NCBI GenBank assembly: GCA_040755995.1
Contig: JBFMAF010000026.1
Coordinates: forward strand, 108,889 to 172,888
Source of the DNA: Acidobacteriota bacterium
GTDB lineage: Bacteria; Acidobacteriota; CAIWXX01
Direction: 5' to 3'
Length of the DNA: 64,000 nt
Position numbers and translations under genes: made by a program. Numbering within the stretch: the stretch's first letter is position 1; each line of letters starts with the position of its first letter. Of the stretch, positions 40,964-58,731 are shown in pieces. The notes below the pieces were generated by a model, which had not been told where the DNA came from, did no database searches, and worked only from the letters and a program-made list of their open reading frames with translations.

Positions 40964-42941
40964 GGGGCTGGCTGTTCTGGATCGGGAGGCGTATCGAGAA
41001 GGTCGTACCCTGGCCGGCAGCGCTTCGGAGCTGGATACTACCGCCGTGGCGCTCGACAATTCCATACGCGATGGAAAGGCCCAGGCCCGTTCCGGTTTTC
41101 TTGGTCGTGAAGAAAGGCTCGAACAGCTTGTCTTTGATCTCGTCGGGAATTCCGGGGCCGTTGTCCTGGATGTGGAGCTCCACCATTTTCAGATCGGCCG
41201 CCACGCCCGTCCGGATTCTGATCTCGCCGTTGTTGGGGATCGCGTCCGCCGCGTTCAAGACGATGTTCAGTACGACCTGCCGCATCTGATCCATGTCGGC
41301 CATGATGCTCGGAACGGAAGGATCGAGATCGGTCTTGATCACCGCATTCCGGAAGCTGGCCTGGTTCCTGACCAGCGCCAGCACGTCCTCGACTACGCGG
41401 TTCAGACTCAGGGATTGTTTGTGCGGTTGGGTCTGGCGAGCGAAGTCCAGGAGTCCCTTGACGATCTTGCGGCACCTGAGGGTCTCGTTCACGATCGTCT
41501 GGAGATCCTCCCGATGCGGGTCATCCGCCGTTGTGTCTTCGAGCATCAGGCTGCTGTTCGTGAGAATGCCCGTCAGCGGATTGTTGATCTCGTGAGCGAC
41601 GCCGGCGGCGAGCTTGCCTATGCCCGCGAGCTTCTCCGCCTGCAGCAGCTGGGTCTGCATCGCCCTCAGCTCGGCAGTGCGTTGATCCACCTTTCGCTCG
41701 AGGTTCTCCGCCCACTCTCGCAGATCCTGGTGTGCCTTCGAGAGCTCGCGCACCATCTTGTTGAACGAGCTGGCCAGATGCGCGATTTCATCCTCGCCGG
41801 TAACCTCGATCTCCTGCGAGTAGTCCCCTCCGGCGAGCCCCTGCGATGCGAGAGCGATCGCCCGGATGGGCTTCGAAATCCTGTCTGCCGCCTTCATCGC
41901 CACCCAGGAGACGAGGACCACTCCGAGGAGGGCGATTCCGAGAAAGACGAGCAGGCTTCTCCAGAGACTGTCCCGAAAAGGCCGTTCGAGCGTGCCGACG
42001 TAGAGCATCCCGATCGTCTTTCCCTGCATGTCCAGGATTGGAGCATAGGCGGAGATGTACCAGTCGTTCACGACGAAGGCTCGGCCGCGCCACGTGTTGC
42101 CTCTCTCGAGCACCTCCTTTGCGACCTCCGCGGACACCCTGGTCGTGATGGCGCGGTTGCCGTCGGCATTCCGCACATTCGTCGAAATGCGGACATCATC
42201 CTGGAATATCGTGGCTGTGCCTACCTCTCTGCCCTTGTAAACCCCTTCCTTGAACACAGTCTTGCGTATCTTGTCCACAACTTCGTAGTTCCGGTTGATG
42301 AGAACGCCGCCGTACAGGATCCCAACCATTCTATTCTGCGGCGTGAAGACAGGCGCGGCTGCCATCAGAAGCATGCCGTCGGCGAGCGTAGTTCGCTCGG
42401 TCGGAGCGGCATGGGGGGTCGGGGTAATGCTCATTCCCGCCTGCTCGGCCAGCGCATCTGACTCCTTCTGAAGCTCCACTGCGGTGAAGATGATGGTGCT
42501 CGCCACCGACTCCCTCCTGAAGAGCGCCATGTGGACGAGCTCCTCGCGCGACATGTCGTCGCCCCGCTGCGCCGGACGGTTCGTGCGATAGAACACCCTG
42601 CCCGAGGAATCGGTGACTGTGAGGATGTCGAGTCGCTCCGCCGACTTCACGCGCTCCATCTCGGGCCCCAGGTTCGACAGATCGTTCCTGTCCAATGCTC
42701 CGTAAATCATCATCCGCGTCGCGTGGATCCTCAAGGAGTCCTTGAGCCGCTCGAGATATCCCTGATAGATCTCCTTCGCGGACTCCAAATCGGAGCTCAC
42801 CTTCGATTCGGCCTGCTCGTAGACGTGGCGCTGAATCATGCGAACTCCGACGAGAGTCGTGATGAGGGCCGGGATCATGATGGCCACGGCGAAGCTTGTG
42901 ATCAGGCGCGCCTTGAGGCTGGAGAGAATACGTAAACGCAT
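40956..42941 (-). CDS. Cache-HAMP sensor histidine kinase
   Basis: Two TM helices, Cache (ATIFQDDVRISTNV), HAMP, AHEINNPL, GTGLGL. Confidence 0.95.
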   Translation of the reverse strand: MRLRILSSLKARLITSFAVAIMIPALITTLVGVRMIQRHVYEQAESKVSSDLESAKEIYQGYLERLKDSLRIHATRMMIYGALDRNDLSNLGPEMERVKSAERLDILTVTDSSGRVFYRTNRPAQRGDDMSREELVHMALFRRESVASTIIFTAVELQKESDALAEQAGMSITPTPHAAPTERTTLADGMLLMAAAPVFTPQNRMVGILYGGVLINRNYEVVDKIRKTVFKEGVYKGREVGTATIFQDDVRISTNVRNADGNRAITTRVSAEVAKEVLERGNTWRGRAFVVNDWYISAYAPILDMQGKTIGMLYVGTLERPFRDSLWRSLLVFLGIALLGVVLVSWVAMKAADRISKPIRAIALASQGLAGGDYSQEIEVTGEDEIAHLASSFNKMVRELSKAHQDLREWAENLERKVDQRTAELRAMQTQLLQAEKLAGIGKLAAGVAHEINNPLTGILTNSSLMLEDTTADDPHREDLQTIVNETLRCRKIVKGLLDFARQTQPHKQSLSLNRVVEDVLALVRNQASFRNAVIKTDLDPSVPSIMADMDQMRQVVLNIVLNAADAIPNNGEIRIRTGVAADLKMVELHIQDNGPGIPDEIKDKLFEPFFTTKKTGTGLGLSIAYGIVERHGGSIQLRSAAGQGTTFSIRLPIQNSQPHA

Positions 42942-43132
42942 TCGACCCTGCAGCGACTGAAATGCGGACGGCACGTTCAGAGATTAGCAGCCCAGCGCTT
43001 CAGCACGCAAGGCACTCTGCTCAAGATTAACACGATTTAATTCGCTCTTAAGGGTCCTTTCATCCGCGGGTGTTAGCTTTCAGGTATGAAACCAACCCGG
43101 GAAACGTACGAACTCCCCGAGGAGGACGGACG

Positions 43133-43714
43133 ATGGTAGACCAACGAGACATAGTGCTGGAAGCGGGAGCAAAGCACGACTTCATCGACGAGCTGCTCGC
43201 GGTGCCGGGCGGCGAGGCGATACGCGACTGCATCCAATGCGGCACGTGCAGCGGCTCTTGCCCCGTTTCCTATTTTATGGACAACACGCCGCGGAAGCTC
43301 TTCGCCATGATCCGCGCGGGGCTGCGCGACCGGGTGCTTGAGAGCGCAAGCCTATGGTTGTGCACGTCGTGCTACACGTGCACCTTGCGCTGCCCAAGGC
43401 AGATAGCCGTGACCGACATCATCTACGCGCTCAAGCGGCTCGCGATGAAGGAGGGCAAGGGGGCCGGCGCGGCGAAGGCAGTGGCGCTGGCCAGCTCGTT
43501 CGTCGCCGTCGTCGATCGCCGGGGCCGCAACTATGAGCCCGAGCTGCTGATACGCTACTACCTGAAGACGAACCCGGCGGCCTTCGTGAACCAGGCCGGA
43601 CTGGGCATGAAGCTGCTGGGACGGGGGCGCTTCCCATTGAAGGGTGAGAAGATACACGGCCTCGACCAGATCCGCACGATTATCGCCAAGTCGCACGAAA
43701 TCGGAGGTCTGTGA
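43133..43714 (+). CDS. hdrC: Heterodisulfide reductase subunit C
   Basis: CIQCGTCSGSCP and CTSCYTCTLRCP; GAGGAGG RBS. Confidence 0.92.
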   Translation: MVDQRDIVLEAGAKHDFIDELLAVPGGEAIRDCIQCGTCSGSCPVSYFMDNTPRKLFAMIRAGLRDRVLESASLWLCTSCYTCTLRCPRQIAVTDIIYALKRLAMKEGKGAGAAKAVALASSFVAVVDRRGRNYEPELLIRYYLKTNPAAFVNQAGLGMKLLGRGRFPLKGEKIHGLDQIRTIIAKSHEIGGL

Positions 43715-44619
43715 TGCGTTTCGCATACTACCCGGGCTGCTCGCTGGAGGCAACGGGGCGAGCCTATGAGGAGTCCACATCGGCGCTTGCCAAGCCGCTG
43801 GGTCTCGATCTCAAGGAACTGGACGACTGGAACTGCTGCGGCGCAACATCGTACATGTCGGTGCGCGAGCTGCTGTCGTACTCGATCTCTGCCAGGAACC
43901 TCTGCCTTGCGCAGAAGCAGGGGCTGGATATTGTCGCGCCGTGCTCGGCCTGCTTCACCATCCTGCGGAAGACCGATCATTACCTGCAGGAGATGCCCGA
44001 GCTGCGAAGAAAGGTGGAGAGTGTTCTGGGAGCTGCCGGCCTGTCCTACACGCCCGGCAGCGTGCGTGTCCGGCACCTGCTGGAGGTGATGACAGGGAAC
44101 GGCGGCCTCGGCAAGATCCGCGACCTGGTGCGGAATCCGCTGAAGACTCTCAAGGTCGCTCCGTATTACGGCTGTCAGATCGTGCGCCCGCGGGTGGATT
44201 TCGACGACCCGGAATACCCGATGGTCCTGGACCGGGTGATCGAGGCGATCGGAGCGCAGGCGGTCTACTATCCGGTGAAATCGCGCTGCTGCGGGGCGTC
44301 ACTGATGGCGTCGAACGAACCCGCCGCGATCCGCCTCTGCAAGAACCTGTTGCTTTGTGCCCAGCAGAACGAGGCCGATTGCATCATCACTGTCTGCCCC
44401 CTCTGCCAGATGAACCTGGACGCGTTTCAGAACAAGGTGAACCTGAAGTATGGAACGCGCTTCAACATCCCTGTTCTTTACTTCACGCAGCTCGTGGGCC
44501 TGGCTTTGGGAATGCCGGCCGGGGCCGTGGGAATAGGCCGGGAGATCGTCCCGGCCGCTTCACTGCTGGGCCGGTACGCCGATACCCCGACGGCCCCAGC
44601 ATCCGTTGCACACGCATGA
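43714..44619 (+). CDS. hdrB: Heterodisulfide reductase subunit B
   Basis: YYPGC, WNCCG, CSAC, YYGC, CCG, CPLC: two CCG domains. Confidence 0.95.
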   Translation: MRFAYYPGCSLEATGRAYEESTSALAKPLGLDLKELDDWNCCGATSYMSVRELLSYSISARNLCLAQKQGLDIVAPCSACFTILRKTDHYLQEMPELRRKVESVLGAAGLSYTPGSVRVRHLLEVMTGNGGLGKIRDLVRNPLKTLKVAPYYGCQIVRPRVDFDDPEYPMVLDRVIEAIGAQAVYYPVKSRCCGASLMASNEPAAIRLCKNLLLCAQQNEADCIITVCPLCQMNLDAFQNKVNLKYGTRFNIPVLYFTQLVGLALGMPAGAVGIGREIVPAASLLGRYADTPTAPASVAHA

Positions 44620-44721
44620 TGAACAAGATCGTCCGCGAGCAGCACCGGCGAAGACAGACCGGATCGCGTGCGGGCCTCGCGCCCGCTCCAATCTTTCGCA
44701 CCTGAAGAAGGAGGATAGACC

Positions 44722-45624
44722 ATGGCCGAACCAGGCGATAGCATAGCAGCGAACGAATCCACGATCGGCCAGGCGACCGACGGTCTCCGTATCGGCGTCT
44801 ATGTCTGCCACTGCGGGACGAATATATCGGGCAAGGTCGACGTCGAGAACGTCTCGCGATACGCGGCCAAACTGCCGGGTGTAGTGATCGCCAGGGACTA
44901 TAAGTTCTTGTGCTCGGATCCCGGGCAGGATCTCATCATCAAGGACATACAGACATACAAACTCCAGCGCGTCGTGGTCTCTTCCTGCTCGCCCAGGATG
45001 CACGAGCCGACGTTCCGCGGAGCCTGCGGCCGGGCGGAGCTCAATCCGTTTCTGATGACCATGGCAAACATCCGCGAACACTGTTCGTGGGTCACCGCAG
45101 ATCCGACCGCGGCCACGGACAAAGCCAAAGCGCTGATACGAGGAGCAGTTGCGCGCGCGGCCAACCTGGAGCCTCTGCACGTGCGCGAAGTGCCGGTCGC
45201 ACCGGCCGTGATGGTCATCGGCGGCGGAATCGCCGGTATCCAGGCGGCCCTGGACGTGGCAAGCGCCGGAAAGAAGGTCTATCTCGTCGAGAAGGAGCCG
45301 AGTATCGGCGGTCACATGGCGCAGTTCGACAAGACCTTCCCGACACTCGACTGCGCCGCCTGCATTCTGACGCCCAAGATGGTCAACGTGGGCCAGAACC
45401 CGAATATCGAGCTTCTCACGTATAGCGAGGTCGAGGATGTGTCTGGATACATCGGCAACTTCAAGGTGCGCGTACGCAGGAAGGCCCGGTTCGTAGACGA
45501 GGACAAGTGTAACGGTTGCGGCGCGTGCTGGGAGGCCTGTCCCGCCAAACGAGTCCCGGCGACACGGGTGATACGCAAGGGGAAGCTCGTCATCGGCCGG
45601 ACGAAGCTACCCTCTGAAAGCTGA
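44722..45624 (+). CDS. hdrA: Heterodisulfide reductase subunit A, N-terminal half
   Basis: CHCGTNI, CSPRMHE, NIREHCSW, GGGIAG, KTFPTLDC, CNGCGACWEACP, then stop. Confidence 0.92.
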   Translation: MAEPGDSIAANESTIGQATDGLRIGVYVCHCGTNISGKVDVENVSRYAAKLPGVVIARDYKFLCSDPGQDLIIKDIQTYKLQRVVVSSCSPRMHEPTFRGACGRAELNPFLMTMANIREHCSWVTADPTAATDKAKALIRGAVARAANLEPLHVREVPVAPAVMVIGGGIAGIQAALDVASAGKKVYLVEKEPSIGGHMAQFDKTFPTLDCAACILTPKMVNVGQNPNIELLTYSEVEDVSGYIGNFKVRVRRKARFVDEDKCNGCGACWEACPAKRVPATRVIRKGKLVIGRTKLPSES

Positions 45625-45660
45625 GTCATCACCAGATGATCCTGTTCACGGGAGCCGAAG

Positions 45661-45996
45661 ATGACGCTCGCAGACGTACGGGATATCCTGAGGGCGGAAA
45701 TCCTCTGGGCGAACGATCTTACTACAGTCGTAGAATCGGTCGGGGCCGCCGACCTGATGAGCGACGTGCTGGCCCTCAGCAGACCGGGCATGCTGCTGCT
45801 TTCAGGGCTGCTCAGCGTGCAGACCATACGCACCGCGGCGGTGGCCGATCTGATTGGAGTCGTGTTCGTGCGCGGGAAGATTCCCGATTCGCAGATCGTC
45901 AGGGCGGCCGAGGAGGCCGGGGTGCCAATCATGAGCACAGCCTTCACAATGTTCGAGGCATCAGGCCTGCTTTACTGCGCGCTGAACCGGCGCTGA
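45661..45996 (+). CDS. DRTGG-domain protein
   Basis: AADLMSDVL...VFVRGK. Confidence 0.85.
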   Translation: MTLADVRDILRAEILWANDLTTVVESVGAADLMSDVLALSRPGMLLLSGLLSVQTIRTAAVADLIGVVFVRGKIPDSQIVRAAEEAGVPIMSTAFTMFEASGLLYCALNRR

Positions 45997-46019
45997 GCAG
46001 GCCGCTGTGTGATGCCGGT

Positions 46020-46448
46020 ATGCAGATGGAGGAGTTCGAGCGGAGCTACACGATCACAGGAAGGGACTTCGTGAACGCAGGTCGGGCCTCTACGGCTGTC
46101 AAGGACATTCTCAAGGGAATGGGTGTCAGGGCCGATCTGGTGCGGCGCGCGGCGATTGCCGCATATGAGGCGGAGATGAACGTAGTGATGTATGCGAGTC
46201 GCGGCACAATGACGCTGCACGTGACCCCTTCGCGGCTGTTGATCGAGGTTGATGACGAGGGGCCCGGAATAGCGGATCTGGAGCTGGCGATGAAGGAGGG
46301 CTATTCCACTGCGACCCACGAGATGCGCGAAATGGGATTCGGCGCCGGAATGGGACTGCCGAATATCAAGAGGAACGCGCATGAGATGAGCATCCAGTCG
46401 GTCGTCGGTGTGGGCACGAAGCTCTCCGTTCAAGTGAGATTCGATTAG
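46020..46448 (+). CDS. Anti-sigma-factor-type (RsbT-like) Ser/Thr kinase
   Basis: YEAEMN, DEGPGI, GYST, GAGMGLPN. Confidence 0.88.
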   Translation: MQMEEFERSYTITGRDFVNAGRASTAVKDILKGMGVRADLVRRAAIAAYEAEMNVVMYASRGTMTLHVTPSRLLIEVDDEGPGIADLELAMKEGYSTATHEMREMGFGAGMGLPNIKRNAHEMSIQSVVGVGTKLSVQVRFD

Positions 46449-46459
46449 AGGGGCATTCA

Positions 46460-47800
46460 GTGCAGGCTTACTATCACTCGATTCGCTTCGACGCGGCCCG
46501 TTGCGACGGCTGCATGTCGTGCATGCGCGTCTGCCCCACGCGAGCGGTCCGAATCCGCAAAGGCGGCGCAGTGATGCTGGAGGATCGCTGCATAGACTGC
46601 GGTGAATGCATCAGGTCGTGCACGCGTGGAGCGGTGGTTCCGCTCACTGGAACGCTCGAGGATCTCTCCAGCTTCACGTACAAGGTGGCAATCCCATCAC
46701 CGGCTCTCTATGCACAGTTCGATCCGGAAGTGACGCCCGGCATGATACTCGACGCGCTGAAGATCTGCGGGTTCGATGATGCAGTGAGTCTGTCGGCTTC
46801 CTGCGATGCCGTGGCGGCTGCCACTGAGCTGTTTCTCGACGAGTATCGCGGCCAGTATCCGTTGATATCCTCGTTCTGCCCGTCGGTAGTGCGGCTTATC
46901 CAGGTGCAGTACCCGGACCTGGTGGAGCAGCTGCTGCCCATATTGACTCCAAGGGAAATAGCCGCGCGGGAAGCCAAGGTGAAGAAGGAAGTGGATAGCG
47001 GCATCGACACGGAGCGAATCGGTGCCGTGTACATCACCCCCTGCCCCGCCAAGATGGTATCGATTGTCGACCACCCGGGAATGGACAGATCCTACCTCGA
47101 CTCTGCCGTCTCCATAAGAGACCTGTACCAGATCCTCGCCGCAGCCCTGGCGCAGAGCCAGGAACGCAAAGATCGCGCAGGCGATGGCGAGACTGCGTCG
47201 GGCATTGCATGGGCCTATCTTGGAGCGTTGCCGATGTCGGTGCCCGCGGAGAACAGCATGTCCGTTGCCGGGCTTCCGAATGTAATCCGGATTCTGGACG
47301 ACATAGAGAAGGGCCGGCTGCGAAGGTATTCGTTCGTTGAGTGTCACGCATGTCCTGAGGGGTGTGTCAGCGGCCCGCTGACCATCGAAAACCCTTACGT
47401 AGCGAGGGCCAGAGCGATCAGACTGTCCGGATCGCTGGAGAGGGCGGAGGCGGCCAGGAGTGAGCAGATTCTCCGGCTCTACCGTGAAGGTGCGTTCCTG
47501 ATGAAACAGACGATCGGCGCCCGGCCGCACAAGCCGCTGGACACCGACATATCGCGCGCAATCGCCAAGATGAAGGAAAAGGACCGGATCCGCGCCGGGC
47601 TGCCTGGGATTGACTGCGGGGCATGCGGTGCGCCGACGTGCGAGGCGTTTGCCGAGGACCTTGTCGAAGGAGAAACCGAAGCAGCCTCTTGTGTGTTCGT
47701 GCGCCAGCAACAGGTCAGCGAACTTGTCGAGAGGCTGGGCGTGCTTCTGAAGATCCATTCAGGCAGCGGCGAACGGCCGTCTGTGGGAGTACAGCAATGA
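46460..47800 (+). CDS. [FeFe]-hydrogenase-like FeS protein (putative sensory, group D type)
   Basis: 2x[4Fe-4S]; SSFCPS, TPCPAK, ECHACPEGCVSG; C-terminal CGACGAPTC FeS domain. Confidence 0.85.
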   Translation: MQAYYHSIRFDAARCDGCMSCMRVCPTRAVRIRKGGAVMLEDRCIDCGECIRSCTRGAVVPLTGTLEDLSSFTYKVAIPSPALYAQFDPEVTPGMILDALKICGFDDAVSLSASCDAVAAATELFLDEYRGQYPLISSFCPSVVRLIQVQYPDLVEQLLPILTPREIAAREAKVKKEVDSGIDTERIGAVYITPCPAKMVSIVDHPGMDRSYLDSAVSIRDLYQILAAALAQSQERKDRAGDGETASGIAWAYLGALPMSVPAENSMSVAGLPNVIRILDDIEKGRLRRYSFVECHACPEGCVSGPLTIENPYVARARAIRLSGSLERAEAARSEQILRLYREGAFLMKQTIGARPHKPLDTDISRAIAKMKEKDRIRAGLPGIDCGACGAPTCEAFAEDLVEGETEAASCVFVRQQQVSELVERLGVLLKIHSGSGERPSVGVQQ

Positions 47801-48147
47801 GGGTTGCCGACATTGCACCCATGTTGAACGGAACAATCGTCGGCGGCATCGAAGCTGCGGACAAGGAAGCCAACGGGGGCTATGTTTCTGATCTACTCTC
47901 GGACGTCATGGGCAACGCCAATGCAGGCGACGTCTGGGTGACAATCCAGAAGCACGTGAACACGATCGCAGTCGCGCATCTCCGGGATATCGCCGCAATC
48001 GTGCTGGCGAACGGGAGGCAACCGGAGGACGAGACGGTGCGGCGGGCCGCAGAGGAACAGGTGCCCGTCATCCTCACCCAGCTGCCGGTCTTCGACGTAG
48101 CTGGAATTCTGTACGGGGTGGGTTTGCGCGGGGGGAGGAAGCCCTGA
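47797..48147 (+). CDS. DRTGG-domain protein
   Basis: GGYVSDLLSDVM...VWVTIQKHVN; ATGA coupling. Confidence 0.85.
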   Translation: MRVADIAPMLNGTIVGGIEAADKEANGGYVSDLLSDVMGNANAGDVWVTIQKHVNTIAVAHLRDIAAIVLANGRQPEDETVRRAAEEQVPVILTQLPVFDVAGILYGVGLRGGRKP

Positions 48148-48149
48148 AG

Positions 48150-49511
48150 GTGTTTACACTGGACACGCATATGCACACTTGCCTCTCCCCGTGTGCAGAT
48201 CTGGACATGCACCCGACTGCCATCGTCGCCACGGCGATACAGGCCGGACTGGACGGCATCGTGGTGTGCGACCATAACTCGGCCGAGAACCTGGCTGCGG
48301 TCCAGCGGGCCGGGCAACGGGTGGGGCTCTCCGTTCTGGCTGGGATGGAGATTGCGAGCGCCGAAGAGGTTCATGTGGTGGCACTGCTGCCTGACCTCGA
48401 AGCTGCTCTGAAATTGCAACGGCGGGTCTACGCGGAGCTGCCCGGTAAGAATGACGAAGAGGCGTTCGGGATGCAGGTTGTAGCCGGTGAAGACGGCGAG
48501 GTGCTCGGCTTCAATCAGCGTCTCCTGATCGGCGCTACCACCATGAGCGTCGAGGAAGTCGTCGCGGCAATCCACGATGCCGGTGGAGTCGCAGTGGCGG
48601 CGCACGTCGATCGCGAAGGTTTCGGGATCATCGGTCAGCTCGGCATGATACCCCCCGGGCTGGCGCTGGACGCACTGGAGGTCTCGAGGCTCACGCCGCT
48701 GTCCGTCGCCCGCCTGAAGTACGTTCCTTCGGGCGAGCTCCCGCTGCTCTGCGGCTCGGATGCCCACGAACCGAAGTTCGTCGGAACAGCGGTGACCTTC
48801 ATGCTGCTGCAGGAACCGACTTTTGCCGAAGTGAATGCGGCCCTCGCGGAGAAGAGCGGCAGGACGGTTCTTGGTGGAGGCAGGCCGATGGAAGATCTTT
48901 CAATGCACATCCTCGACATCGCGCAGAATTCGATCGAGGCCGGAGCCTCTTCCGTCGAGATCAGCCTCGTCGAAGACATTGCGCGCGACCTGCTCGAGAT
49001 CGAAGTGCGCGACGACGGGAAGGGCATGGACCCTGAGACGATCGCGAAGGTCGCCGACCCCTTCTTCACCACGAGAACGACACGAAAGGTGGGGATGGGT
49101 CTGGCGTTCCTCGCACAGGCCGCGCAGGCTGCGGGCGGCGAGTTGTCAATCAAGTCGGAACCCGGGCAGGGGACTCGCGTGAAAGCGTCCTTCGGCCTGA
49201 GTCACATAGACCGCGCGCCGATCGGAGACGTCGAGACTACGCTGATGGTGCTTCTGGCAGGACACGACAACGTCGATCTCACGTTCAGGCATTCAATCGG
49301 CGGGCGGGAGTTCTCGCTGTGTACGGCGGATCTGAAGGAGGCCGCCGGGGGTGGACCGCTTTCCACACCGGCGGGTCTCGCGCTGCTCCGGCAGGCCATT
49401 CGCCTCGGCGAGTCATCCTTGCGCGAGCCGGATCCGGCGAGGCAGACCCGGCGACCAGGAAATCAGACGGCGGCTTCACTGGAGGTCAACAATGAATATC
49501 GAGACCGGTAG
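48150..49511 (+). CDS. PHP phosphoesterase fused to HATPase_c kinase
   Basis: DTHMHT, DHNS, AHVDR, SDAH; then HILDIAQNS, DDGKGM, PFFTT, GMGL. Confidence 0.88.
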   Translation: MFTLDTHMHTCLSPCADLDMHPTAIVATAIQAGLDGIVVCDHNSAENLAAVQRAGQRVGLSVLAGMEIASAEEVHVVALLPDLEAALKLQRRVYAELPGKNDEEAFGMQVVAGEDGEVLGFNQRLLIGATTMSVEEVVAAIHDAGGVAVAAHVDREGFGIIGQLGMIPPGLALDALEVSRLTPLSVARLKYVPSGELPLLCGSDAHEPKFVGTAVTFMLLQEPTFAEVNAALAEKSGRTVLGGGRPMEDLSMHILDIAQNSIEAGASSVEISLVEDIARDLLEIEVRDDGKGMDPETIAKVADPFFTTRTTRKVGMGLAFLAQAAQAAGGELSIKSEPGQGTRVKASFGLSHIDRAPIGDVETTLMVLLAGHDNVDLTFRHSIGGREFSLCTADLKEAAGGGPLSTPAGLALLRQAIRLGESSLREPDPARQTRRPGNQTAASLEVNNEYRDR

Positions 49512-49989
49512 GGTCAGCGAGATCGCAATGCGGCATGGGAGGAGGCGGGAGCACATCATTGCTATCCTGCTGGATTGCCAGGAGGAGTTCCTGCACTTGC
49601 CCAGGCAGGTAATCGAAACGGTGGCCAAGGACGTCGGCGCTCCTGTTTCGACCGTCCTCGGCATCGCCACGTTCTTCAGGGCTTTCAGCCTCAAGCCGGT
49701 GGGGCGCTACCCGATTCATGTTTGCATGGGCACGGCCTGCCACGTGCAGGGCGCTCCGAGGCTGTTGGAGGCGCTGGAGAGGGAGATTGGCGTGAAGAGG
49801 GGCGAGACCACGTCGGACATGGCATTCAACCTCGACACCGTCAACTGCCTCGGCTGCTGCGGTCTGGCTCCAGTGATCAACGTCGGCAAGGATGTTCACG
49901 GCAAGCTCAAGCAGTCGGCCATACCACGTCTCGTCAAGACGTATCGGGCCAAGTTTGCCAGGGAGGCGGAGGTGAAGGGCCATGCCTAA
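49492..49989 (+). CDS. HydC/NuoE-like [2Fe-2S] subunit
   Basis: CMGTAC...CLGCC. Confidence 0.92.
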   Translation: MNIETGRVSEIAMRHGRRREHIIAILLDCQEEFLHLPRQVIETVAKDVGAPVSTVLGIATFFRAFSLKPVGRYPIHVCMGTACHVQGAPRLLEALEREIGVKRGETTSDMAFNLDTVNCLGCCGLAPVINVGKDVHGKLKQSAIPRLVKTYRAKFAREAEVKGHA

Positions 49990-50365
49990 ACTCACGATCG
50001 AGGATCTGAAGAGGATCAGCGAGCAGGCCAAAGCCACGATGACACTCCGCTCGGGCACCGCCCGCGCAAAGGTGACCGTCCACATGGGAACGTGCGGGAT
50101 CTCGGCAGGAGCGCGCGAGGTGATGGCGGCGCTGTTGAAGGAGATCGAGACGGGCGGAGTGACCGATGTACTGGTAGGCACTTCGGGTTGTGCAGGGTTA
50201 TGCAGTCGCGAACCGATGGCGACTGTCGAGATCCGGGGCCAGCCGCCGGTGAAGTACGTGGACCTCTCGCCTGAGAAGATGGGCCAGGTATTCCGGAAAC
50301 ACGTCATGGGCGGGACGATCTTGATGGAGTACGCGCTGGCAGCGGGGAGCGAAACGACCGGTTGA
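49982..50365 (+). CDS. HydD-like thioredoxin-fold ferredoxin
   Basis: MGTCGISAG...GCAGLC..EP. Confidence 0.88.
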   Translation: MPKLTIEDLKRISEQAKATMTLRSGTARAKVTVHMGTCGISAGAREVMAALLKEIETGGVTDVLVGTSGCAGLCSREPMATVEIRGQPPVKYVDLSPEKMGQVFRKHVMGGTILMEYALAAGSETTG

Positions 50366-50384
50366 CGGCCGGGGAGGAGTGCAT

Positions 50385-52208
50385 ATGGCATACCGTACAC
50401 ACGTTCTGATTTGTGGCGGAACGGGATGCGTCTCGAGCGGCTCGTTCGAATTGCGCGGCGTCTTCACGGCCGAACTGCAGAAACAGGGTCTCGCCAAGGA
50501 AGTGCAGGTCATCATCACGGGGTGCCAGGGATTCTGCGCCGAGGGGCCGATCATGATCGTGCAACCGGACGGGGTCTTCTATTGCGGCGTCCAGAAGAAG
50601 GACATACCCAACCTGGTCACCGAACACCTGCTGAAAGGCCGGCCGGTGAAGAAGCTGATGTATACGCCGCCGGTCGAGAAGGTGCCGATCCCGGCGCTCA
50701 AGGACATCCCGTTCTTCGCGAAGCAACGGCTGGTGGTCTTGCGCAACCGCGGGTTGATCGATCCGGAGCGGATTGACGACTACATCGCCGTAGGCGGCTA
50801 CACCGCCCTGGTCAAGGCGCTTACGGAGATGACGCCGGAAGATATCATTTCCGAGATCAAGAGGTCTGGTCTGAGAGGCCGCGGTGGAGGCGGATTCCCG
50901 GCGGGCATCAAATGGGAAACATGCCGGCGCGCGGCGCAGAAGCGCGGGGTAGCGCCGGTGGTGGTCTGCAACGCCGATGAGGGCGATCCCGGCGCCTTCA
51001 TGGACCGCAGCATCATCGAATGCGACCCGCATTCGGTGGTGGAGGGGATGATCATCGGCGCATCCGCCATCGGCTGCAGTGAAGGGTTCGTCTACATCCG
51101 CCACGAGTACCCCATCGCGCGCGAGCGGTTGCTGAAGGCGCTGGAACAGGCCCGCGACTACGGGCTGCTGGGCAACGACATCCTGGGCACGGGACTGAAC
51201 TTCGACATCGAAATCGTCCAGGGGGCCGGCGCCTTCGTCTGCGGAGAGTCCACTGCGCTCATGGCGTCGCTCGAGGGCAAGATCGGCGAGCCGAGGGCCA
51301 AGTACATCCATACGGTGGAGTACGGTTACAAGAACCAGCCCACGAATCTCAACAACGTGGAGACCTGGGCGAATGTGCCCTTGATCGTGAATCGCGGGGC
51401 GGGCTGGTTCTCGTCGATGGGGACCGGGGACGTGGCTGAGAATCCGTGGGGCGGGAGCAGCGGGACGAAGGTGTTCTCGCTGGTCGGCAAGGTCAACAAC
51501 ACCGGGTTGATAGAAGTCCCCATGGGGATCTCATTGCGCGAGATCATCTTCGATATCGGCGGAGGCATTCCGGGAGGCAGGGAGTTCAAGGCTGTGCAGA
51601 CGGGTGGTCCCTCCGGCGGCTGCCTCCCGAGCTCGCTGCTGGACATGCCCGTCGATTTCGACAGCCTCACCGAAGCGGGCTCCATGATGGGCTCCGGCGG
51701 CATGATCGTGATGGATGACCACACGTGCATGGTGGATGTCGCGAGGTACTTCATCAACTTCCTCACGGAGGAATCCTGCGGCAAGTGCATACCCTGTCGC
51801 GAGGGACTGCGGCATTCCCTTCGGATACTCAACAACATCAGCGACGGAAACGGGCGGCCGGAAGACGTGGATCTCTTGCAGGAAATGGGCGAGGTGATGC
51901 AGGACAGCTGCCTGTGCGCGCTGGGCACTTCGGCTCCAAACCCCGTCCTCTCCACCCTCCGCTACTTCAAGGGCGAGTACGAAGCGCACATCAAGGACCA
52001 CAGGTGTCCGGGGGGCGTCTGCAAGGCGCTGGTTGAATACTCGATCGATCAGCAGTTGTGCGACGGCTGCCACGCCTGCGTGCCTGCCTGTTCGACGCAG
52101 GCGATCACCGGCAAGGTCAAAGAGAAGCACACTCTGGACAAGACGAAGTGCATCAAGTGCGGCGCCTGTATTGAGGTTTGCAAGCGCGAAGCCGTACTGC
52201 GGGTCTAG
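50385..52208 (+). CDS. HydB/NuoF-like FMN/NAD subunit, bifurcating-type architecture
   Basis: N-terminal 2Fe-2S, RGRGGGGFP, EGDPGAFMDR, GGPSGG, CGKCIPCREG, HRCPGGVC, C-terminal 2x[4Fe-4S]. Confidence 0.93.
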   Translation: MAYRTHVLICGGTGCVSSGSFELRGVFTAELQKQGLAKEVQVIITGCQGFCAEGPIMIVQPDGVFYCGVQKKDIPNLVTEHLLKGRPVKKLMYTPPVEKVPIPALKDIPFFAKQRLVVLRNRGLIDPERIDDYIAVGGYTALVKALTEMTPEDIISEIKRSGLRGRGGGGFPAGIKWETCRRAAQKRGVAPVVVCNADEGDPGAFMDRSIIECDPHSVVEGMIIGASAIGCSEGFVYIRHEYPIARERLLKALEQARDYGLLGNDILGTGLNFDIEIVQGAGAFVCGESTALMASLEGKIGEPRAKYIHTVEYGYKNQPTNLNNVETWANVPLIVNRGAGWFSSMGTGDVAENPWGGSSGTKVFSLVGKVNNTGLIEVPMGISLREIIFDIGGGIPGGREFKAVQTGGPSGGCLPSSLLDMPVDFDSLTEAGSMMGSGGMIVMDDHTCMVDVARYFINFLTEESCGKCIPCREGLRHSLRILNNISDGNGRPEDVDLLQEMGEVMQDSCLCALGTSAPNPVLSTLRYFKGEYEAHIKDHRCPGGVCKALVEYSIDQQLCDGCHACVPACSTQAITGKVKEKHTLDKTKCIKCGACIEVCKREAVLRV

Positions 52209-52228
52209 GGCTCACGGAGGAGTTGGCC

Positions 52229-53977
52229 ATGAAAGTAGTGAAGCTGAAAGTCGATGGCGTCGAGACTGAAGCCGAAGACCGAACATCGCTTCTGACGGTT
52301 ACCAAGAAGCTCGGCATCAAGGTCCCGACCTTGTGCTACCACCCGATCATCGAGCCTGCAGGCGTCTGCCGGATCTGCACGGTGGAGGTTCGGATGCGCA
52401 ATCGGGTCCGATTGGTGACAGCGTGCAACTACCCCGTGAGCGAAGGGATCGAGGTGTTGACGAATTCCGAGCGTGTCCGCCGGACCCGCAGGCTGATCAT
52501 TGAATGGCTGCTTTCCCGCTGCGGGAACGTCAAGGTGTTGAACGATCTTGCGGCCGAATATGGGATCACGGAGCCGAGGTTCGGACGGGGCGATGAGGAC
52601 TGCATCCTGTGCGGCCTCTGCGTGCGCGTCTGTTCGGATGTCGTCGGCAGGCACGTCCTGGGCTTCTTCAACCGCGGCACTACTCGCGAAGTCAACACAC
52701 CGTACGGCGAGACTAGCGAGGAGTGCATTGCGTGCGGGGCCTGCGCATACGTCTGCCCGACCGGATGCATCACGATCCAGGATGAGGAGAAGCTGGTGCG
52801 GCAGGAGCTGCCGATGGGCCCGATCACTCCAATATCCATCCCATTCATGCAGGCGGTCCCCGCAGTGCCCGTCATCGACAAGGCGAGCTGCGTCTACTTC
52901 AAGACCGGTGGATGCCAGGTGTGCAAGTCGGTTTGCGAGAAACAGGCCATCGAACACACCGCTGATGACAAGCTTGTCGAATTCGAAGTCGGCAGCATCA
53001 TCGCCGCCACCGGTTTCCAGTCAATGGATCCGACCAGACTCTCACAGTACGGATACGGCCGGCTTGGAAACGTGTTCACGGCGCTGGAATTCGAGAAGCT
53101 GAACAACGCGTCGGGGCCGACTGGCGGAAGGATCCTGATGGCCGACGGCAGGGCTCCGGAGAGCGTGGCGCTGCTGCACTGCGTCGGCAGCCGCGACAAG
53201 AACTACCACGAATACTGTTCGCGCGTCTGCTGCATGATGGCCCTCAAGTATGCCCACCTCATTCACGAGAAAACCGGGGCGGCCGTCTACGATTTCTTCA
53301 TCGATCTCCGCTGCTTCGGCAAGGGCTACGAGGAGTTCTACAACCGGCTGCTCGAAGAGGGGGTCTTCTTCATCCGGGGTCGAGCCGGTGAGGTTTCTGA
53401 CTTCGCGATCTATGAAGAAGAGCGGGGGAAGCTCATCGTTCGGTGCGAAGACACGCTCATCGGCGTCGTGCGGCGGATCCCGGTGGACATGGTCGTCCTC
53501 ATGACCGCTCTGGAACCGGCGAATGACGCCAACAATGTTGCGAGGCTGCTGAACATCTCGTGCAGCAAAGACAGTTTCTTCCTGGAACAGCATCCGAAAC
53601 TGGCGCCCGTGGCCACACCGACCGACGGCGTGTTCATCGCCGGAGCCTGCCAGGGTCCTAAGGACATCCCGGACGCGGTCGCGCAAGCCTCCGCCGCCGC
53701 CTCGGCGGCCATCTCGCTGTCCGTCCGTGGAAGAGTCGAGATCGAACCGGTTACCTGTGTGGTGGATGGCGAGCGGTGCGCTGCATGCCGTATATGCAAC
53801 ACGCTCTGCCCGTTCACAGCCATCAGCTTCGACATCGAGAAAGATGCGTCCGTCATCAACGACGCGCTGTGCAAGGGGTGCGGCACCTGCGCGGCGGCCT
53901 GCCCGAGCAGCGCAATCACCGCGCGGCATTTCAACGACCGGCAGCTGCTCAACGAAATCGCGGGGGTGTGTGCATGA
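52229..53977 (+). CDS. hdrA: Fusion of HydA/NuoG-type N-terminal FeS module and HdrA C-terminal half
   Basis: PTLC, CRIC, TAC; CILCGLC, CIACGAC; then IPFMQAVP, AATG, LEFE, CVGSRD, YCSRVCCM, GACQGPKDI, 2x[4Fe-4S]. Confidence 0.9.
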   Translation: MKVVKLKVDGVETEAEDRTSLLTVTKKLGIKVPTLCYHPIIEPAGVCRICTVEVRMRNRVRLVTACNYPVSEGIEVLTNSERVRRTRRLIIEWLLSRCGNVKVLNDLAAEYGITEPRFGRGDEDCILCGLCVRVCSDVVGRHVLGFFNRGTTREVNTPYGETSEECIACGACAYVCPTGCITIQDEEKLVRQELPMGPITPISIPFMQAVPAVPVIDKASCVYFKTGGCQVCKSVCEKQAIEHTADDKLVEFEVGSIIAATGFQSMDPTRLSQYGYGRLGNVFTALEFEKLNNASGPTGGRILMADGRAPESVALLHCVGSRDKNYHEYCSRVCCMMALKYAHLIHEKTGAAVYDFFIDLRCFGKGYEEFYNRLLEEGVFFIRGRAGEVSDFAIYEEERGKLIVRCEDTLIGVVRRIPVDMVVLMTALEPANDANNVARLLNISCSKDSFFLEQHPKLAPVATPTDGVFIAGACQGPKDIPDAVAQASAAASAAISLSVRGRVEIEPVTCVVDGERCAACRICNTLCPFTAISFDIEKDASVINDALCKGCGTCAAACPSSAITARHFNDRQLLNEIAGVCA

Positions 53978-54402
53978 GCTTCGAACCGAAGATCGTGGGA
54001 ATCCTGTGCAACTGGTGCTCCTACACCGGCGCAGACCTGGCGGGCACCGCCAGGATCCAGTACGCGCCCAACGTTCGAGTGGTCCGCGTGATGTGTTCCG
54101 GCCGCGTCGACCCGTCCTTCGTGCTGAAGGCGCTCCAGTGCGGCGCCGACGGGGTCCTGATCGCCGGCTGCCACCTTGGCGACTGCCACTATCAGTCGGG
54201 CAACTACAAGACGATGCGCCGCTTCGCGCTGATGAAGCGCGTGCTCGCTCAGCTGGGCGTCGAGCCCGACAGGGTGCGGCTGGAATGGGTCAGCGCATCG
54301 GAAGGTGAGCGCTGGGCGGCGGTCGTCAACGACATGACCGAGAAGGTGCGCGCCCTGGGCCCATTCACCTCGGGCGACGGCAACAACGCGTTGGGGGCCT
54401 GA
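53974..54402 (+). CDS. mvhD: MvhD [2Fe-2S] subunit
   Basis: CNWCSY, MCSGRV, GCHLGDCHY, WVSASEG. Confidence 0.95.
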   Translation: MSFEPKIVGILCNWCSYTGADLAGTARIQYAPNVRVVRVMCSGRVDPSFVLKALQCGADGVLIAGCHLGDCHYQSGNYKTMRRFALMKRVLAQLGVEPDRVRLEWVSASEGERWAAVVNDMTEKVRALGPFTSGDGNNALGA

Positions 54403-54426
54403 CCCGATGGACGGCACGAGCACCGC

Positions 54427-54475
54427 GAACCGTGAACCAGGAACCGGGAACCTTGAACCGGGAACCTTGAACCGA
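54427..54475 (+). repeat. Heptamer tandem repeat GAACCNN x7
   Basis: GAACCGT GAACCAG GAACCGG GAACCTT GAACCGG GAACCTT GAACCGA. Confidence 0.85.
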
Positions 54476-54498
54476 TGTAGAGGCAGGGAGGTGTTCCC

Positions 54499-55467
54499 AT
54501 GGGCAAACTGAAACTCGCGCTTTACTGGGCCGGAGCCTGCGGAGGCTGCGACGTCTCCGTGCTGGACACCAACGAGCGAATTCTAAAGATCGCCGAGCTG
54601 GCCGATCTGTTGCTCTGGCCGATCGCCCTGGACTTCAAGTATCACCACATCGAAGCGCTCCCCGACGAGCACATCGACGTCTGCCTTTTCAACGGAGCAA
54701 TTCGCAATTCGGAGAACGAACACCTCGCGAAGCTGCTGCGGCAGAAGTCGAAGGTGATGGTCGCGTACGGATCGTGCGCGCACCTGGGCGGCATCCCCGG
54801 GCTGGCGAATTTCTCCACGCGGAGAGACATCCTCCATCACGTCTACATGGACAGCGCCTCGACTGTGAATCCCGGGGGCACAGTTCCACTGGAGAAGACC
54901 GCCCTTCCCATCGGGGACCTCGAGCTGCCGAAGTTCCACTATGAGGTGCACTCCCTCGACCAGGTCGTTCCCGTCGACTACTACCTTCCCGGCTGCCCGC
55001 CCGCTGTGGACCAGGTCTGGGCGGCGATCGAGGCCATTGCCACGGACAAGTTGCCCGCGGCGGGATCGGTGGTGGGCGCTGACCAGGTGGCGCTTTGCGA
55101 CAAATGCACGAGAAAGAAGTCCGAGAAGCGGATAAAAGAGTTCAAATCGATCGCCCAGGTGATTCCGGACCCGGAGATCTGCTTCCTCGAACAGGGCATC
55201 GTCTGCTGCGGTCCCGCGACTCGAGCGGGATGCGGCGCCCCCTGCATCAATGCCAACATGCCGTGTCGCGGCTGCTACGGCCCGGCACCGGACGTGCCGG
55301 ACATGGGCGGAAAGCTGCTGTCGGCGATCGCGTCGGTGATCGATTCGGATGATCCGGCTGAGATCGACCGCATCGTGGCTCAGATCGAGGACCCGGCGGG
55401 GACGTTCTACCGGTTCAGCCTGCCGAGCTCGCTCCTCTCCGGCACGCAACAGAAGGAGGCCGCATGA
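54499..55467 (+). CDS. mvhG: [NiFe] hydrogenase small subunit (group 3c type)
   Basis: CGGC, GSCA, PGCPP, CFLEQG..C.GP.T.AGC, CRGC. Confidence 0.92.
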   Translation: MGKLKLALYWAGACGGCDVSVLDTNERILKIAELADLLLWPIALDFKYHHIEALPDEHIDVCLFNGAIRNSENEHLAKLLRQKSKVMVAYGSCAHLGGIPGLANFSTRRDILHHVYMDSASTVNPGGTVPLEKTALPIGDLELPKFHYEVHSLDQVVPVDYYLPGCPPAVDQVWAAIEAIATDKLPAAGSVVGADQVALCDKCTRKKSEKRIKEFKSIAQVIPDPEICFLEQGIVCCGPATRAGCGAPCINANMPCRGCYGPAPDVPDMGGKLLSAIASVIDSDDPAEIDRIVAQIEDPAGTFYRFSLPSSLLSGTQQKEAA

Positions 55468-56924
55468 AACGCATCACGATCGATCCCATCACACGCCTCG
55501 AGGGGCACGGCAAGATCGAGATCTTCCTGGACGATACCGGAGAGGTCGCGGATGTGTACTTCCAGGTGCCCGAGCTGCGCGGATTCGAGAAGTTCTGCCA
55601 GGGACGGCCCGTGTGGGAATTGGCTTCGATTGTTCCCAAGATCTGCGGCGTCTGCCCGGGGGCTCATCACCTGGCCGCGGGCAAGGCGATCGATGCCGTT
55701 TACAAAGTGGATCCGCCGCCCGCGGCGAAGAAGCTGCGGGAGCTCTTCTACTCTGCCCACTACGTGCACAGCCACATTGCGCACTTCTACGCCCTGGCGG
55801 CGCCCGACTTCGTCGTCGGCCCGACGGCCGATCCCGCTCAGCGCAACATCCTCGGCGTTGTGGCGAAAGTCGGGCTCGAGCTCGGTGGCGCCGTGATCGC
55901 CCACCGCAAGATGGCCCAGGAGATTCAAGCCACGCTGGCCGGCCATCAGACCCACACGCGATGGTGCGTCCCAGGCGGAGTGAGCAGGGGAATAACCGAA
56001 GCGCAACGCCTCGAAGTCGTCGAAAAAGCGATCTCGTGTCTCGAGTTCGCCAAGACCTCGATAAAGATCTTTGACGACGTCGTCCTGAAGAACAAGGAGT
56101 ACGTCGACCTGATCCTCTCCGATGCCTACTCGCTCACCACGCACTACATGGGACTGGTGGACGACAACAACAGGGTGAACTTCTACGACGGCAAGGTCCG
56201 AGTCGTCGACACGGCCGGAAAGGAGATCGTCAAGTACGCTCCCGCCGAGTACCTGAATCATGTCGGCGAGCACGTGGAAACCTGGTCATACTTGAAGTTC
56301 CCATTCCTGAAGGCGAAGGGCTGGAAGGGGTTGGTGGACGGGCAGGACTCCGGCGTCTACCGGGCTGCGCCGCTCGCGCGGCTCAATGCCGCCGACGGAA
56401 TGGCCACACCGCTCGCTCAGCAGGAGTACGACAAGTTCTTCCAGACACTCGGCGGCAAGCCGGTTCACGCTACGCTCGCTCAACACTGGGCTCGAATCGT
56501 CGAGCTTGCGTATGCCTCGGAGCGGCTGCTGGAACTGGCGAATGACCCGGAGGTGGCAAGTCCAAACGTCCGCTGCCTGCCACAGGCGACACCGCACGAG
56601 GGGGTCGGGATCGTCGAGGCGCCCAGAGGCACGCTGACCCATCACTACGTCACCGACGAGCGTGGAATGACGACGAACGTGAACCTGATCGTCGGCACCA
56701 CCAACAACCACGCTCCGATCTGCATGTCGATCAAGAAGGCGGCCAAAGGCCTGATCAAACGCGGGAAGGAGATCACGGAGGGGACGCTCAACATGATCGA
56801 GATGGCCTTCCGCGCATACGACCCGTGCTTCTCATGCGCCACGCACAGTCTGCCCGGCCGCCTGCCTTTCGAGGTTGTCGTGCGGGAGCCGGATGGCTCG
56901 ATTGCGCATGTCGCAAAGAGATAA
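55464..56924 (+). CDS. mvhA: [NiFe] hydrogenase large subunit (group 3c type)
   Basis: TRLEGH, ICGVC, EAPRG, RAYDPCFSCATH plus C-terminal extension. Confidence 0.95.
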   Translation: MKRITIDPITRLEGHGKIEIFLDDTGEVADVYFQVPELRGFEKFCQGRPVWELASIVPKICGVCPGAHHLAAGKAIDAVYKVDPPPAAKKLRELFYSAHYVHSHIAHFYALAAPDFVVGPTADPAQRNILGVVAKVGLELGGAVIAHRKMAQEIQATLAGHQTHTRWCVPGGVSRGITEAQRLEVVEKAISCLEFAKTSIKIFDDVVLKNKEYVDLILSDAYSLTTHYMGLVDDNNRVNFYDGKVRVVDTAGKEIVKYAPAEYLNHVGEHVETWSYLKFPFLKAKGWKGLVDGQDSGVYRAAPLARLNAADGMATPLAQQEYDKFFQTLGGKPVHATLAQHWARIVELAYASERLLELANDPEVASPNVRCLPQATPHEGVGIVEAPRGTLTHHYVTDERGMTTNVNLIVGTTNNHAPICMSIKKAAKGLIKRGKEITEGTLNMIEMAFRAYDPCFSCATHSLPGRLPFEVVVREPDGSIAHVAKR

Positions 56925-57152: not shown

Positions 57153-57704
57153 ATGCAAGAGCGTGTACTGGTCCTGGGGCTTGGGAATCCGATACTGACG
57201 GATGATGCGGTCGGATTGCTGGTCGCGCGCGAGGTTCGGCAGCGGATCGGCTCAGGTGTCCACGTCGCCGAAGCGTCGGTCGCCGGTTTCGATCTGATCG
57301 AGGCGTTCTCGGGATACGATCGTGTGATCGTGATCGACTCGATCCGGACGCCCGGCGGCAGCCCCGGTGCAGTGTATCTCCTCGCTTCTGAGGACCTGCC
57401 AGCCACCGAACGCCTCACCGGGGCTCACGAGATCGACCTGGCTACGGCAATCGCCTTGGGGCGCAGGCTGGGCCTGCACATGCCGCACACGGTCCGCATC
57501 GTGGCCGTCGAGGTCCAGGACAACCGAACGTTCGGCGAATCGTGCACTCCGGAGGTCGCACGCTCGATCGACTCGGCTGTGGAGCTCGTCCTGGATGAGA
57601 TTCTCTTCAAGAGTCGTCGACTAATCCGCTCGCGGATCGAAACATGCAATCGGGGCGCCATATCAGCCCTGCAAAGAAGGGAGGTCGAAAGTGCCCGCCC
57701 CTGA
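57153..57704 (+). CDS. Hydrogenase maturation protease
   Basis: LGLGNPILTDDAVG, VIDS, AHE. Confidence 0.92.
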   Translation: MQERVLVLGLGNPILTDDAVGLLVAREVRQRIGSGVHVAEASVAGFDLIEAFSGYDRVIVIDSIRTPGGSPGAVYLLASEDLPATERLTGAHEIDLATAIALGRRLGLHMPHTVRIVAVEVQDNRTFGESCTPEVARSIDSAVELVLDEILFKSRRLIRSRIETCNRGAISALQRREVESARP

Positions 57705-58728: not shown

Positions 58729-58731
58729 CCC

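Follow-up and report, generated by a model that had tools for sequence, protein, structure and literature searches.

A split hdrA gene with a BfuA-type wire spliced into its ferredoxin domain, beside a [NiFe] hydrogenase: a candidate two-stage bifurcating enzyme from an Acidobacteriota bacterium

Why should a gene for HdrA be found in two pieces, with the genes of a bifurcating (Bfu) module between them, next to a [NiFe] hydrogenase? The locus lies at positions 43133..56924 of a 64,000-nucleotide stretch of an Acidobacteriota genome (the window; assembly GCA_040755995.1, contig JBFMAF010000026.1, positions 108,889 to 172,888). All features lie on the + strand, and Pfam and NCBIfam profile matches were used as the family basis for the parts. 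The split, the fusion, their conservation and their cluster motifs can be read directly from the genomes compared below; as a whole they are best explained, with a probability of about 0.5, by a two-stage enzyme of composition MvhAGD-HdrA'A''BC-BfuABC.

The first piece is a 300-residue N-terminal half, HdrA-N (44722..45624), matching NF040770 over 1-256 and the solved chain 5ODC_A over 5-258. It contains the N-terminal iron-sulfur (FeS) domain, the GxGxxG half of the flavin adenine dinucleotide (FAD) domain, a CxxC pair (C211/C214), the first Cys motif of the inserted ferredoxin domain (M0; C263, C266, C269 and C273, at 45508..45540) and a partly conserved C-terminal tail (45541..45621), in whose place NuoE stands in fused forms. 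The second piece belongs to a fusion gene (52229..53977, 582 residues), in which the domain map assigns the first ~185 residues to Fer2_4 plus 2x[4Fe-4S] and matches NF040770 238-639 from residue 162 on. Its front part (52229..52783) is a BfuA-type wire with an A1 [2Fe-2S] site and the A2/A4 2x[4Fe-4S] sites formed by motifs M1 and M2; its rear part, the HdrA C-half (52796..53977), carries M3 (52889-52936), the C part of the FAD domain, the HA4 cluster and the C-terminal ferredoxin. No H-cluster domain (Fe_hyd_lg_C) was detected in the fusion with Pfam. The preliminary description of the locus was accurate in these respects: every open reading frame (ORF) lies where it had been placed, 6,557 bases separate the end of the HdrA-N match from the open frame of the fusion, both halves have a ribosome-binding site (AGGAGG 7 bases before the HdrA-N ATG, GGAGGAG 6 bases before that of the fusion), and profile searches recovered a regulatory cassette, nuoE/hydC, a HydD-like gene and nuoF/hydB between the halves, with mvhD-mvhG-mvhA after them.

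Together the halves span 5ODC_A 5-258 and 244-649, so no part of HdrA has been lost; the two alignments overlap because motif M2 of the wire aligns with the first inserted motif of HdrA. The cut separates the two Cys motifs belonging to the inserted 2x[4Fe-4S] ferredoxin domain, and the alignment suggests that the fusion arose by a crossover at the motif common to wire and HdrA. All marks of HdrA (the N-terminal FeS domain, HA4, and the inserted and C-terminal 2x[4Fe-4S] domains) are present over the two chains; in place of a single chain with a free inserted ferredoxin domain there are two genes with the wire spliced in. GC content is flat at 60-64% throughout, and a scan for promoters and terminators gave counts at chance level.

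The split and the fusion are real and conserved, and are not the product of misassembly. When the best 120 of 7,998 matches were considered, 117 of the 119 non-self ones showed 56-73% identity over 99-100% of the fusion. Of 400 other genomes from the phylum, 24 have the junction, and in a scan of species genomes it was seen in the first 44 of the 80 loci listed. Judged by record titles, the carriers come from 14 bacterial phyla, and two more records are archaeal (labels of metagenome-assembled genomes, taken unchecked). Besides the window we analyzed 71 junction loci, a duplicate row (L078) having been dropped; with the single-chain locus L109 set apart, 70 remain. The complete order of 16 genes from hdrC to mvhA recurs in 19 other loci, and HdrA-N lies upstream in 60 of the 70 (60 of the 62 with enough upstream DNA), 8 others ending at a contig edge. 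The preliminary description had left room for a misassembled junction or a lack of conserved homologs; the same junction and gene order in many independent genomes answer both. A decaying insertion would likewise have to accommodate the full-length homologs, the 19 identical gene orders, the invariant cluster ligands and an in-frame TGA at the CxxC pair (C214) in 9/60 N-halves, consistent with selenocysteine. At the level of the family, misassembly or decay is refuted by these comparisons, its chance being practically nil. Annotation pipelines label both halves HdrA or 4Fe-4S protein, which hides the architecture.

Do the two halves rebuild one protein? A cluster of the 2x[4Fe-4S] fold is bound by three Cys of one motif together with a single Cys of its partner motif. 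The fusion holds M1, M2 and M3 consecutively and HdrA-N holds M0 alone; given this odd number of motifs in the fusion and the shared ligation, M3 would need the M0 of the other chain. An alignment census showed the twelve Cys of M1, M2 and M3 to be invariant in 65/65 long fusions and the four of M0 in 60/60 N-halves; HA4, E289 and K340 were kept in 65/65 fusions and the A1 ligands in 64/65. E289 and K340 align to E356 and K409 of 5ODC, which are the FAD residues named in PMC12054007.

Modelled alone from a 30-row alignment, the fusion gave a mean predicted local distance difference test score (pLDDT) of 69.9, the wire reaching ~90 and two pieces of the FAD domain (248-260 and 452-507) staying below 50. 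The complex model of fusion and HdrA-N scored 0.80 as compared to 0.51 for the best control, with 472-479 contacts, passing a mark reached by 51/78 solved pairs and 2/108 mismatched pairs; runs shared at least 86% of contacts and the pLDDT of the partner was at least 87. In the model the four Cys of M3 all lie at the interface and the four of M1 all lie outside it, wire residues 166-184 also contact the partner, and the tail of HdrA-N packs on M3 and the wire. The halves thus pair in the model; the pass shows likeness to solved HdrA more than binding, as may be expected because the structure of HdrA has been solved. HdrA-N is fused to NuoE in 15/70 loci and NuoF lies upstream in 69/70, which links the Bfu module with each of the two halves. 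Across 30 loci, partial distance correlations, which are descriptive since the pairs are not independent, were 0.54 for NuoE-NuoF, 0.46 for the N- and C-halves, 0.42 for wire-NuoF, 0.34 for wire-N, -0.14 for N-NuoF and -0.06 for wire-C; they appear to track the expected contacts rather than gene distance, wire and C-half being near zero though in one chain. With the invariant motifs, the complex model and the NuoE fusions, the association of the halves that the preliminary description had proposed gains support.

The genes between the halves include BfuC (NuoE/HydC; 49492..49989), a thioredoxin-like [2Fe-2S] protein (PF01257, E 3e-44) with the C1 site; a 127-residue protein (49982..50365) free of Pfam or NCBIfam matches, which we take to be HydD-like from its Cys pattern and position; and BfuB (NuoF/HydB; 50379..52208), with the flavin mononucleotide (FMN)/NAD(H) site and ligands for B1, B2/Zn, B3, B4 and B5. 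The BfuB ligands are C12/17/49/53, C450/H537/C543/C548, C467/470/473/513 and C561-601, so that B1-B5 are all kept, and every core ligand defined in PMC9304861 is found in the NuoF of the window. Compared with solved chains, BfuB scored 612-766 bits against the bifurcating HydB, WorB and NfnB and at most 351 against others; it keeps the Asp, Ala, Met and Phe positions common to bifurcating HydB and WorB chains and shares a CGES/PRxKYIH stretch with 9MQX_B. We dropped the idea of reading NADP specificity from the CGES motif, as the NAD-linked Wor-Bfu chain 9MQX_B has the same one; at this position 34 of 65 NuoFs have Ser and 28 Glu. The wire has ligands for A1, A2 and A4 and none for A3, and its fold agrees with WorA 9MQX_A (template modelling score 0.71 on the target, root-mean-square deviation 1.8 A), in which electrons run A4-A2-A1-B1 (PMC12318220). 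The "HydA-type" wire of the preliminary description therefore stands as an FeS module, without a His-ligated A3 and closer to WorA than to [FeFe] HydA; likewise, the NuoE and NuoF of its "HydCDB" module are there, the better name being BfuABC with an A3-less BfuA, and HydD being optional (a homolog lies upstream in 37/70 loci).

Variants of this module were seen in other loci. NuoF is 1020-1046 residues long in L070, L072, L075, L076, L079, L081, L116, L119 and L126 (9/66 NuoFs), with a GltD-like C-terminal part in the one checked, L070; these forms may add a third flavin to the same operon. In L132:3695-4654, L144:6726-7688 and L152:6552-7499, NuoE is fused to a preceding NqrF-type membrane anchor and [2Fe-2S] domain, and the next genes are nuoF and a free wire.

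The remaining subunits surround the split gene. Upstream are hdrC (43133..43714), a 2x[4Fe-4S] protein with ATG and ribosome-binding site (TIGR03290, E 6e-28, below the cut-off), and hdrB (43714..44619), with two CCG domains and ten cluster Cys, each kept in 39-40 of 40 homologs. Downstream follow mvhD (53974..54402; PF02662, E 4e-56), mvhG (54499..55467; VhuG model best) and mvhA (55464..56924; VhuA model best, 391 bits), a Mvh-type [NiFe] large subunit whose L1 and L2 motifs agree with those in PMC6085437, L1 having Lys where most homologs have Arg. A hydrogenase maturation protease (57153..57704; TIGR00072 above the cut-off), which lies beyond the span first described and 3' of mvhA in many loci, is evidently part of the conserved operon.

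How does this set compare with known systems? All six subunit types are common to the MvhAGD-HdrABC of methanogens (5ODC, 8RVU, 7BKB) and the intact bacterial hdrCBA-mvhDGA, and the FAD Lys/Glu and HdrB Cys are kept here; the differences are that HdrA consists of two chains and that a covalent BfuA wire fills its ferredoxin exit. Another parallel is benzoyl-CoA reductase II (BCRII), Bam[(BC)2DEFGHI]2 (Bam-Bfu, PMC9304861), which also has HydBC-type and HdrA-type modules in series, an A3-less BfuA and an MvhD-like adaptor; a 2026 preprint (bioRxiv 10.64898/2026.04.10.717634) states that this coexistence had not been reported earlier, and describes two bifurcation modules in series by structure, the sole such case in the literature consulted, the coupled reaction being not assayable owing to short circuits. 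There, free BamI feeds the input side and the inserted ferredoxin domain leads to BamBC, whereas here the hydrogenase is on the input side, Bfu sits in the inserted domain, HdrA is split and there is no tungsten enzyme; profile scans of this operon gave no BamBC tungsten subunits, dimeric BamE or free BamI. On the best reading of this comparison, the wiring would be opposite to that of BCRII. The same genome holds, on another contig (L166, 17100-34000), a Bam-like DEFGHI cluster with an HdrD-like protein, a fused HdrA dimer, a long MvhD, nuoE, nuoF and a free wire; it also has a second, broken copy of nuoF plus wire, and its BamB partner is unconfirmed.

Type III HdrA, HdrA9-11 of ANME-1 archaea and HdrL (PMC12054007, PMC9012536) also have a pyridine-nucleotide module in the same ferredoxin loop, consisting of one GltD/NfnB-like domain in a single chain rather than a three-to-nine-gene block that splits the gene; a profile scan found no GltD in the HdrA pieces of the window. 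The nearest members of the Bfu family, Wor-Bfu (9MQX) and NiFe-HydABCSL (7T2R), share the five cluster sites of BfuB, BfuC and the A1/A2/A4 wire. Here, in contrast, half of HdrA is fused to BfuA, a type not listed in section 5 of PMC9304861, and the hydrogenase connects via MvhD and a second flavin instead of A3. The [FeFe] HydABC enzymes have an H-cluster domain in HydA and HydEFG maturases, whereas here the fusion has no such domain and a search of the genome gave no HydG. In the nuoEFG-mvhD-hdrA clusters of Desulfotignum phosphitoxidans (PMC4046663) NuoEFG genes lie beside hdrA and mvhD, and the accessible text mentions neither split nor fusion. Neither the split nor the fusion nor a Bfu of Hdr type turned up in our literature search, which covered little supplementary material, or in passages of PMC7325909, PMC4046663, PMC11406978, PMC6085437, PMC6305446, PMC5109826 and bioRxiv 10.1101/2024.09.26.615249. 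Every module is known, and the combination of a split HdrA with a spliced Bfu, not found described, is apparently new.

The preliminary description had gathered these genes into a single complex linking H2, NAD(H), ferredoxin and a disulfide; that complex and its reaction are proposals drawn from sequence comparison and modelling. We consider it probable that Mvh, Hdr and Bfu proteins form one soluble complex, MvhAGD-HdrA'A''BC-BfuABC. In it HdrA would be rebuilt from two chains that share both the FAD domain and the inserted ferredoxin domain, with two [4Fe-4S] clusters held between M0 of HdrA-N and M3 of the fusion. In solved Hdr complexes low-potential electrons leave for ferredoxin by way of the inserted domain; it is here that the wire is spliced in, and Bfu is likely to be wired to that exit. 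According to the BCRII preprint, electrons enter at the C-terminal ferredoxin domain and an MvhD-like adaptor, the HdrBC-like BamD forms the high-potential branch, and low-potential electrons leave by the inserted ferredoxin domain of HdrA, which reduces external ferredoxin; by this assignment H2 would enter here through MvhAGD, HdrBC would take the high-potential and Bfu the low-potential electrons.

Electrons from H2 oxidised at MvhA would then pass through MvhG and MvhD to the FAD of HdrA for a first bifurcation. The high-potential electrons would move through HdrC and HdrB to a disulfide (RSSR) or similar acceptor, and the low-potential ones by way of the shared clusters and then A4-A2-A1 to the FMN of BfuB, where a second bifurcation would yield NADH and reduced ferredoxin (Fd). 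The net reaction would be 4 H2 + 2 RSSR + NAD+ + 2 Fd(ox) -> 4 RSH + NADH + 2 Fd(red). A rough calculation with potentials from PMC9304861 sets the equilibrium of this cascade at ~1 Pa H2 for an acceptor at -140 mV, or 10 Pa for one at -200 mV (assumed); in the same calculation Mvh-Hdr comes out at 67 Pa and a simple Bfu hydrogenase at 15,500 Pa. That both bifurcations work and that the complex runs in the H2-oxidising direction is, taken together, an even bet.

The direction of the reaction is where the proposal meets a serious rival, namely that fermenters run the same complex backwards: Bfu would confurcate NADH and reduced ferredoxin, HdrB would oxidise a thiol, HdrA would combine the electrons from both and MvhA would release H2 at low pressure, the whole acting as a valve for high-potential electrons. 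The genome of the window has dsrA, acetyl-CoA synthase (ACS) and several [NiFe] hydrogenases, with no HydG found and no RnfC above the cut-off; dsrA and ACS make H2 uptake fit this organism and count against the reverse run in it. Nor does a thiol donor gene recur beside the operon (9/14 flanking families scanned), and H2 could be released only below ~1-10 Pa. In the 24 other carriers, however, dsrA was found in none and ACS in 2, so most of them look like fermenters in which H2 release is as plausible; RnfC was above the cut-off in 12 and HydG was found in 6 (5 above the cut-off), most of the 24 lacking any detected sulfite reductase and [FeFe] hydrogenase maturase, as the reverse run would have it. 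We regard that direction as unlikely, all told. The scarcity of dsrA and ACS nevertheless weighs against the two-stage reading, as do several other observations. B3/B4 ligands are missing in 11/65 NuoF homologs, so bifurcation at Bfu is not family-wide, and the B5 ligands Cys12 and Cys17 are missing in 18/65 and 13/65. Where enough DNA is available, mvhG and mvhA directly follow in 28/46 loci and are replaced or missing nearby in 18/46; the genomes of the Mvh-less copies L077, L078 and L080 also carry a complete copy. L097 and L102 have more than 9 kb upstream without HdrA-N, short stand-alone N-half frames being present elsewhere in the L102 genome.

The losses of B3/B4 or B5 ligands in some members would also suit an enzyme with one bifurcation only, in which HdrA works normally and NuoEF is an NAD(P)+-reducing sink for low-potential electrons, comparable to the GltD insert of type III HdrA and HdrL; close relatives (L029, L030) have GltD-like inserts in the same loop, and L029 is sister to split forms. 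This is distinctly unlikely: in the BfuB of the window B1-B5 are all present, as are the Asp, Ala, Met and Phe positions, and NAD+ reduction alone would waste ~200 mV. Bfu might instead be the mid-potential input, feeding through the inserted ferredoxin domain an FAD that passes electrons to HdrBC (high) and to MvhD and H2 (low), as proposed for type III HdrA, where NADH would be the mid-potential donor via the GltD insert (PMC12054007); in BCRII, too, Bfu is the input. There, however, the input enters by the C-terminal ferredoxin domain and the MvhD-like BamF, a side here occupied by MvhD with hydrogenase, formate dehydrogenase (L064) or AsrAB-like genes, and the type III route is itself a proposal, all of which makes the idea quite improbable. 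Finally, the halves may rebuild HdrA while BfuBC stays unbound, with the wire acting as tethered ferredoxin and NuoEF functioning on its own. The polyphyly of the NuoFs beside split hdrA and two loci with neither nuoE nor HdrA-N nearby would agree with this; the nearly constant NuoF upstream, the NuoE-HdrA-N fusions, the conserved A1 ligands and wire distances that track NuoF render it highly improbable.

The GltD-like inserts of L029 and L030, type III-like proteins that are near neighbours in the HdrA tree, lead to the history of the loop. In L114:5679-9209 the ferredoxin loop of an HdrA dimer accommodates a response-regulator receiver domain, and L109:2820-5153 encodes a single-chain HdrA of 777 residues with only the 2x[4Fe-4S] part of the wire in its loop. 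The loop is evidently an exchangeable socket, holding Bfu, a GltD-like domain, a receiver domain or nothing. The HdrA tree spreads the split forms over three clades, among them a BamE-like fused dimer, and intact forms are interspersed; although the HdrA of "type II" relatives is a fused dimer, they retain the spliced wire. L029 is sister to split forms with 100% support in the Shimodaira-Hasegawa-like approximate likelihood ratio test, and a single origin of split forms was rejected on HdrA-C by the approximately unbiased test (p 1.7e-8; 44 chosen of 118 rows, LG+G4 quick tree, unrooted). Because the tree has no root, gains, losses and swaps of the insert cannot be told apart. In a fasttree phylogeny the NuoFs next to split hdrA were scattered and polyphyletic. 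The input side varies as well, with formate dehydrogenase in L064 and AsrAB-like genes in other loci, and a single-chain hdrA, within hdrCBA-mvhDGA, occurs in two genomes from the same family as that of the window.

As to the acceptor of HdrB, DsrC was rejected as a family-wide candidate, dsrA having been found in none of the 24 other carriers (the model matched the genome of the window and no control genome). A lipoyl or sulfur carrier partner was also set aside: 345 flanking ORFs were clustered, 14 families occurred in at least 3 loci, and no such partner recurs among the 9/14 scanned in Pfam. These and one extra ORF gave a ferredoxin-type protein, an ABC ATPase, HypB, HypA, GatC, an amidase, a receiver domain and three blanks.

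The regulatory cassette, optional like HydD (29/70 loci), comprises a DRTGG protein (45661..45996; PF07085), an RsbW-like ATPase/kinase (46020..46448, from the ATG at 46020; PF13581, scanned from 45993), an [FeFe]-hydrogenase-like FeS protein (46460..47800; PF02906 and PF04060), a second DRTGG protein (47797..48147; Pfam) and a PHP phosphoesterase-HATPase fusion (48150..49511; Pfam). The [FeFe]-like protein, the one Fe_hyd_lg_C match in the genome, keeps Cys motifs like H-cluster ligands though no HydG was found there; it is probably a sensor and may be a plain FeS one. The cassette resembles those beside H2-forming [FeFe] hydrogenases, which would favour the H2-releasing direction; a literature search gave no confirmation of this likeness. 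PHP and HATPase are fused in three loci only (the window, L060 and L062) and separate elsewhere, and in L116, L120, L121, L125, L126 and L128 the cassette, without the [FeFe]-like gene, stands between nuoF and the wire fusion. A divergent Cache histidine kinase and a sigma-54 response regulator lie upstream (39539-42974), and a comparable pair stands beside the operon in L061, L071, L073, L074, L079 and L085. Before them, at 38979-39651, ORF reading gave a nucleotidyltransferase-like frame and a short, apparently truncated HEPN-like one. On the other side, 57691-64000 and the continuing stretch of the contig (L165, 171000-181600) hold a GAF-GAF protein, FdhF-like and AsrA/AsrB-like proteins, a second protease and a group 4 membrane hydrogenase-type cluster, possibly a separate NAD(P)-linked membrane hydrogenase; the FdhF-like protein apparently lacks the catalytic Cys/Sec-His.

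In its widest form, which we put forward tentatively, the proposal is of a widespread two-stage bifurcating hydrogenase with two [4Fe-4S] clusters ligated over two polypeptides, making NADH and reduced ferredoxin from ~1-10 Pa H2. The loop would then be a socket of general use, and its plug (none, GltD, Bfu or receiver domain), repeatedly swapped, would set the output. If true, serial bifurcation could be tested directly on this system, with its reversed wiring, a simple gas as substrate and NAD+ and ferredoxin as read-outs. It would also add a new type to the Bfu family and give a handle on what bacterial HdrB reduces, and it would explain how uncultured anaerobes without [FeFe] maturases link trace H2 to NADH and ferredoxin.

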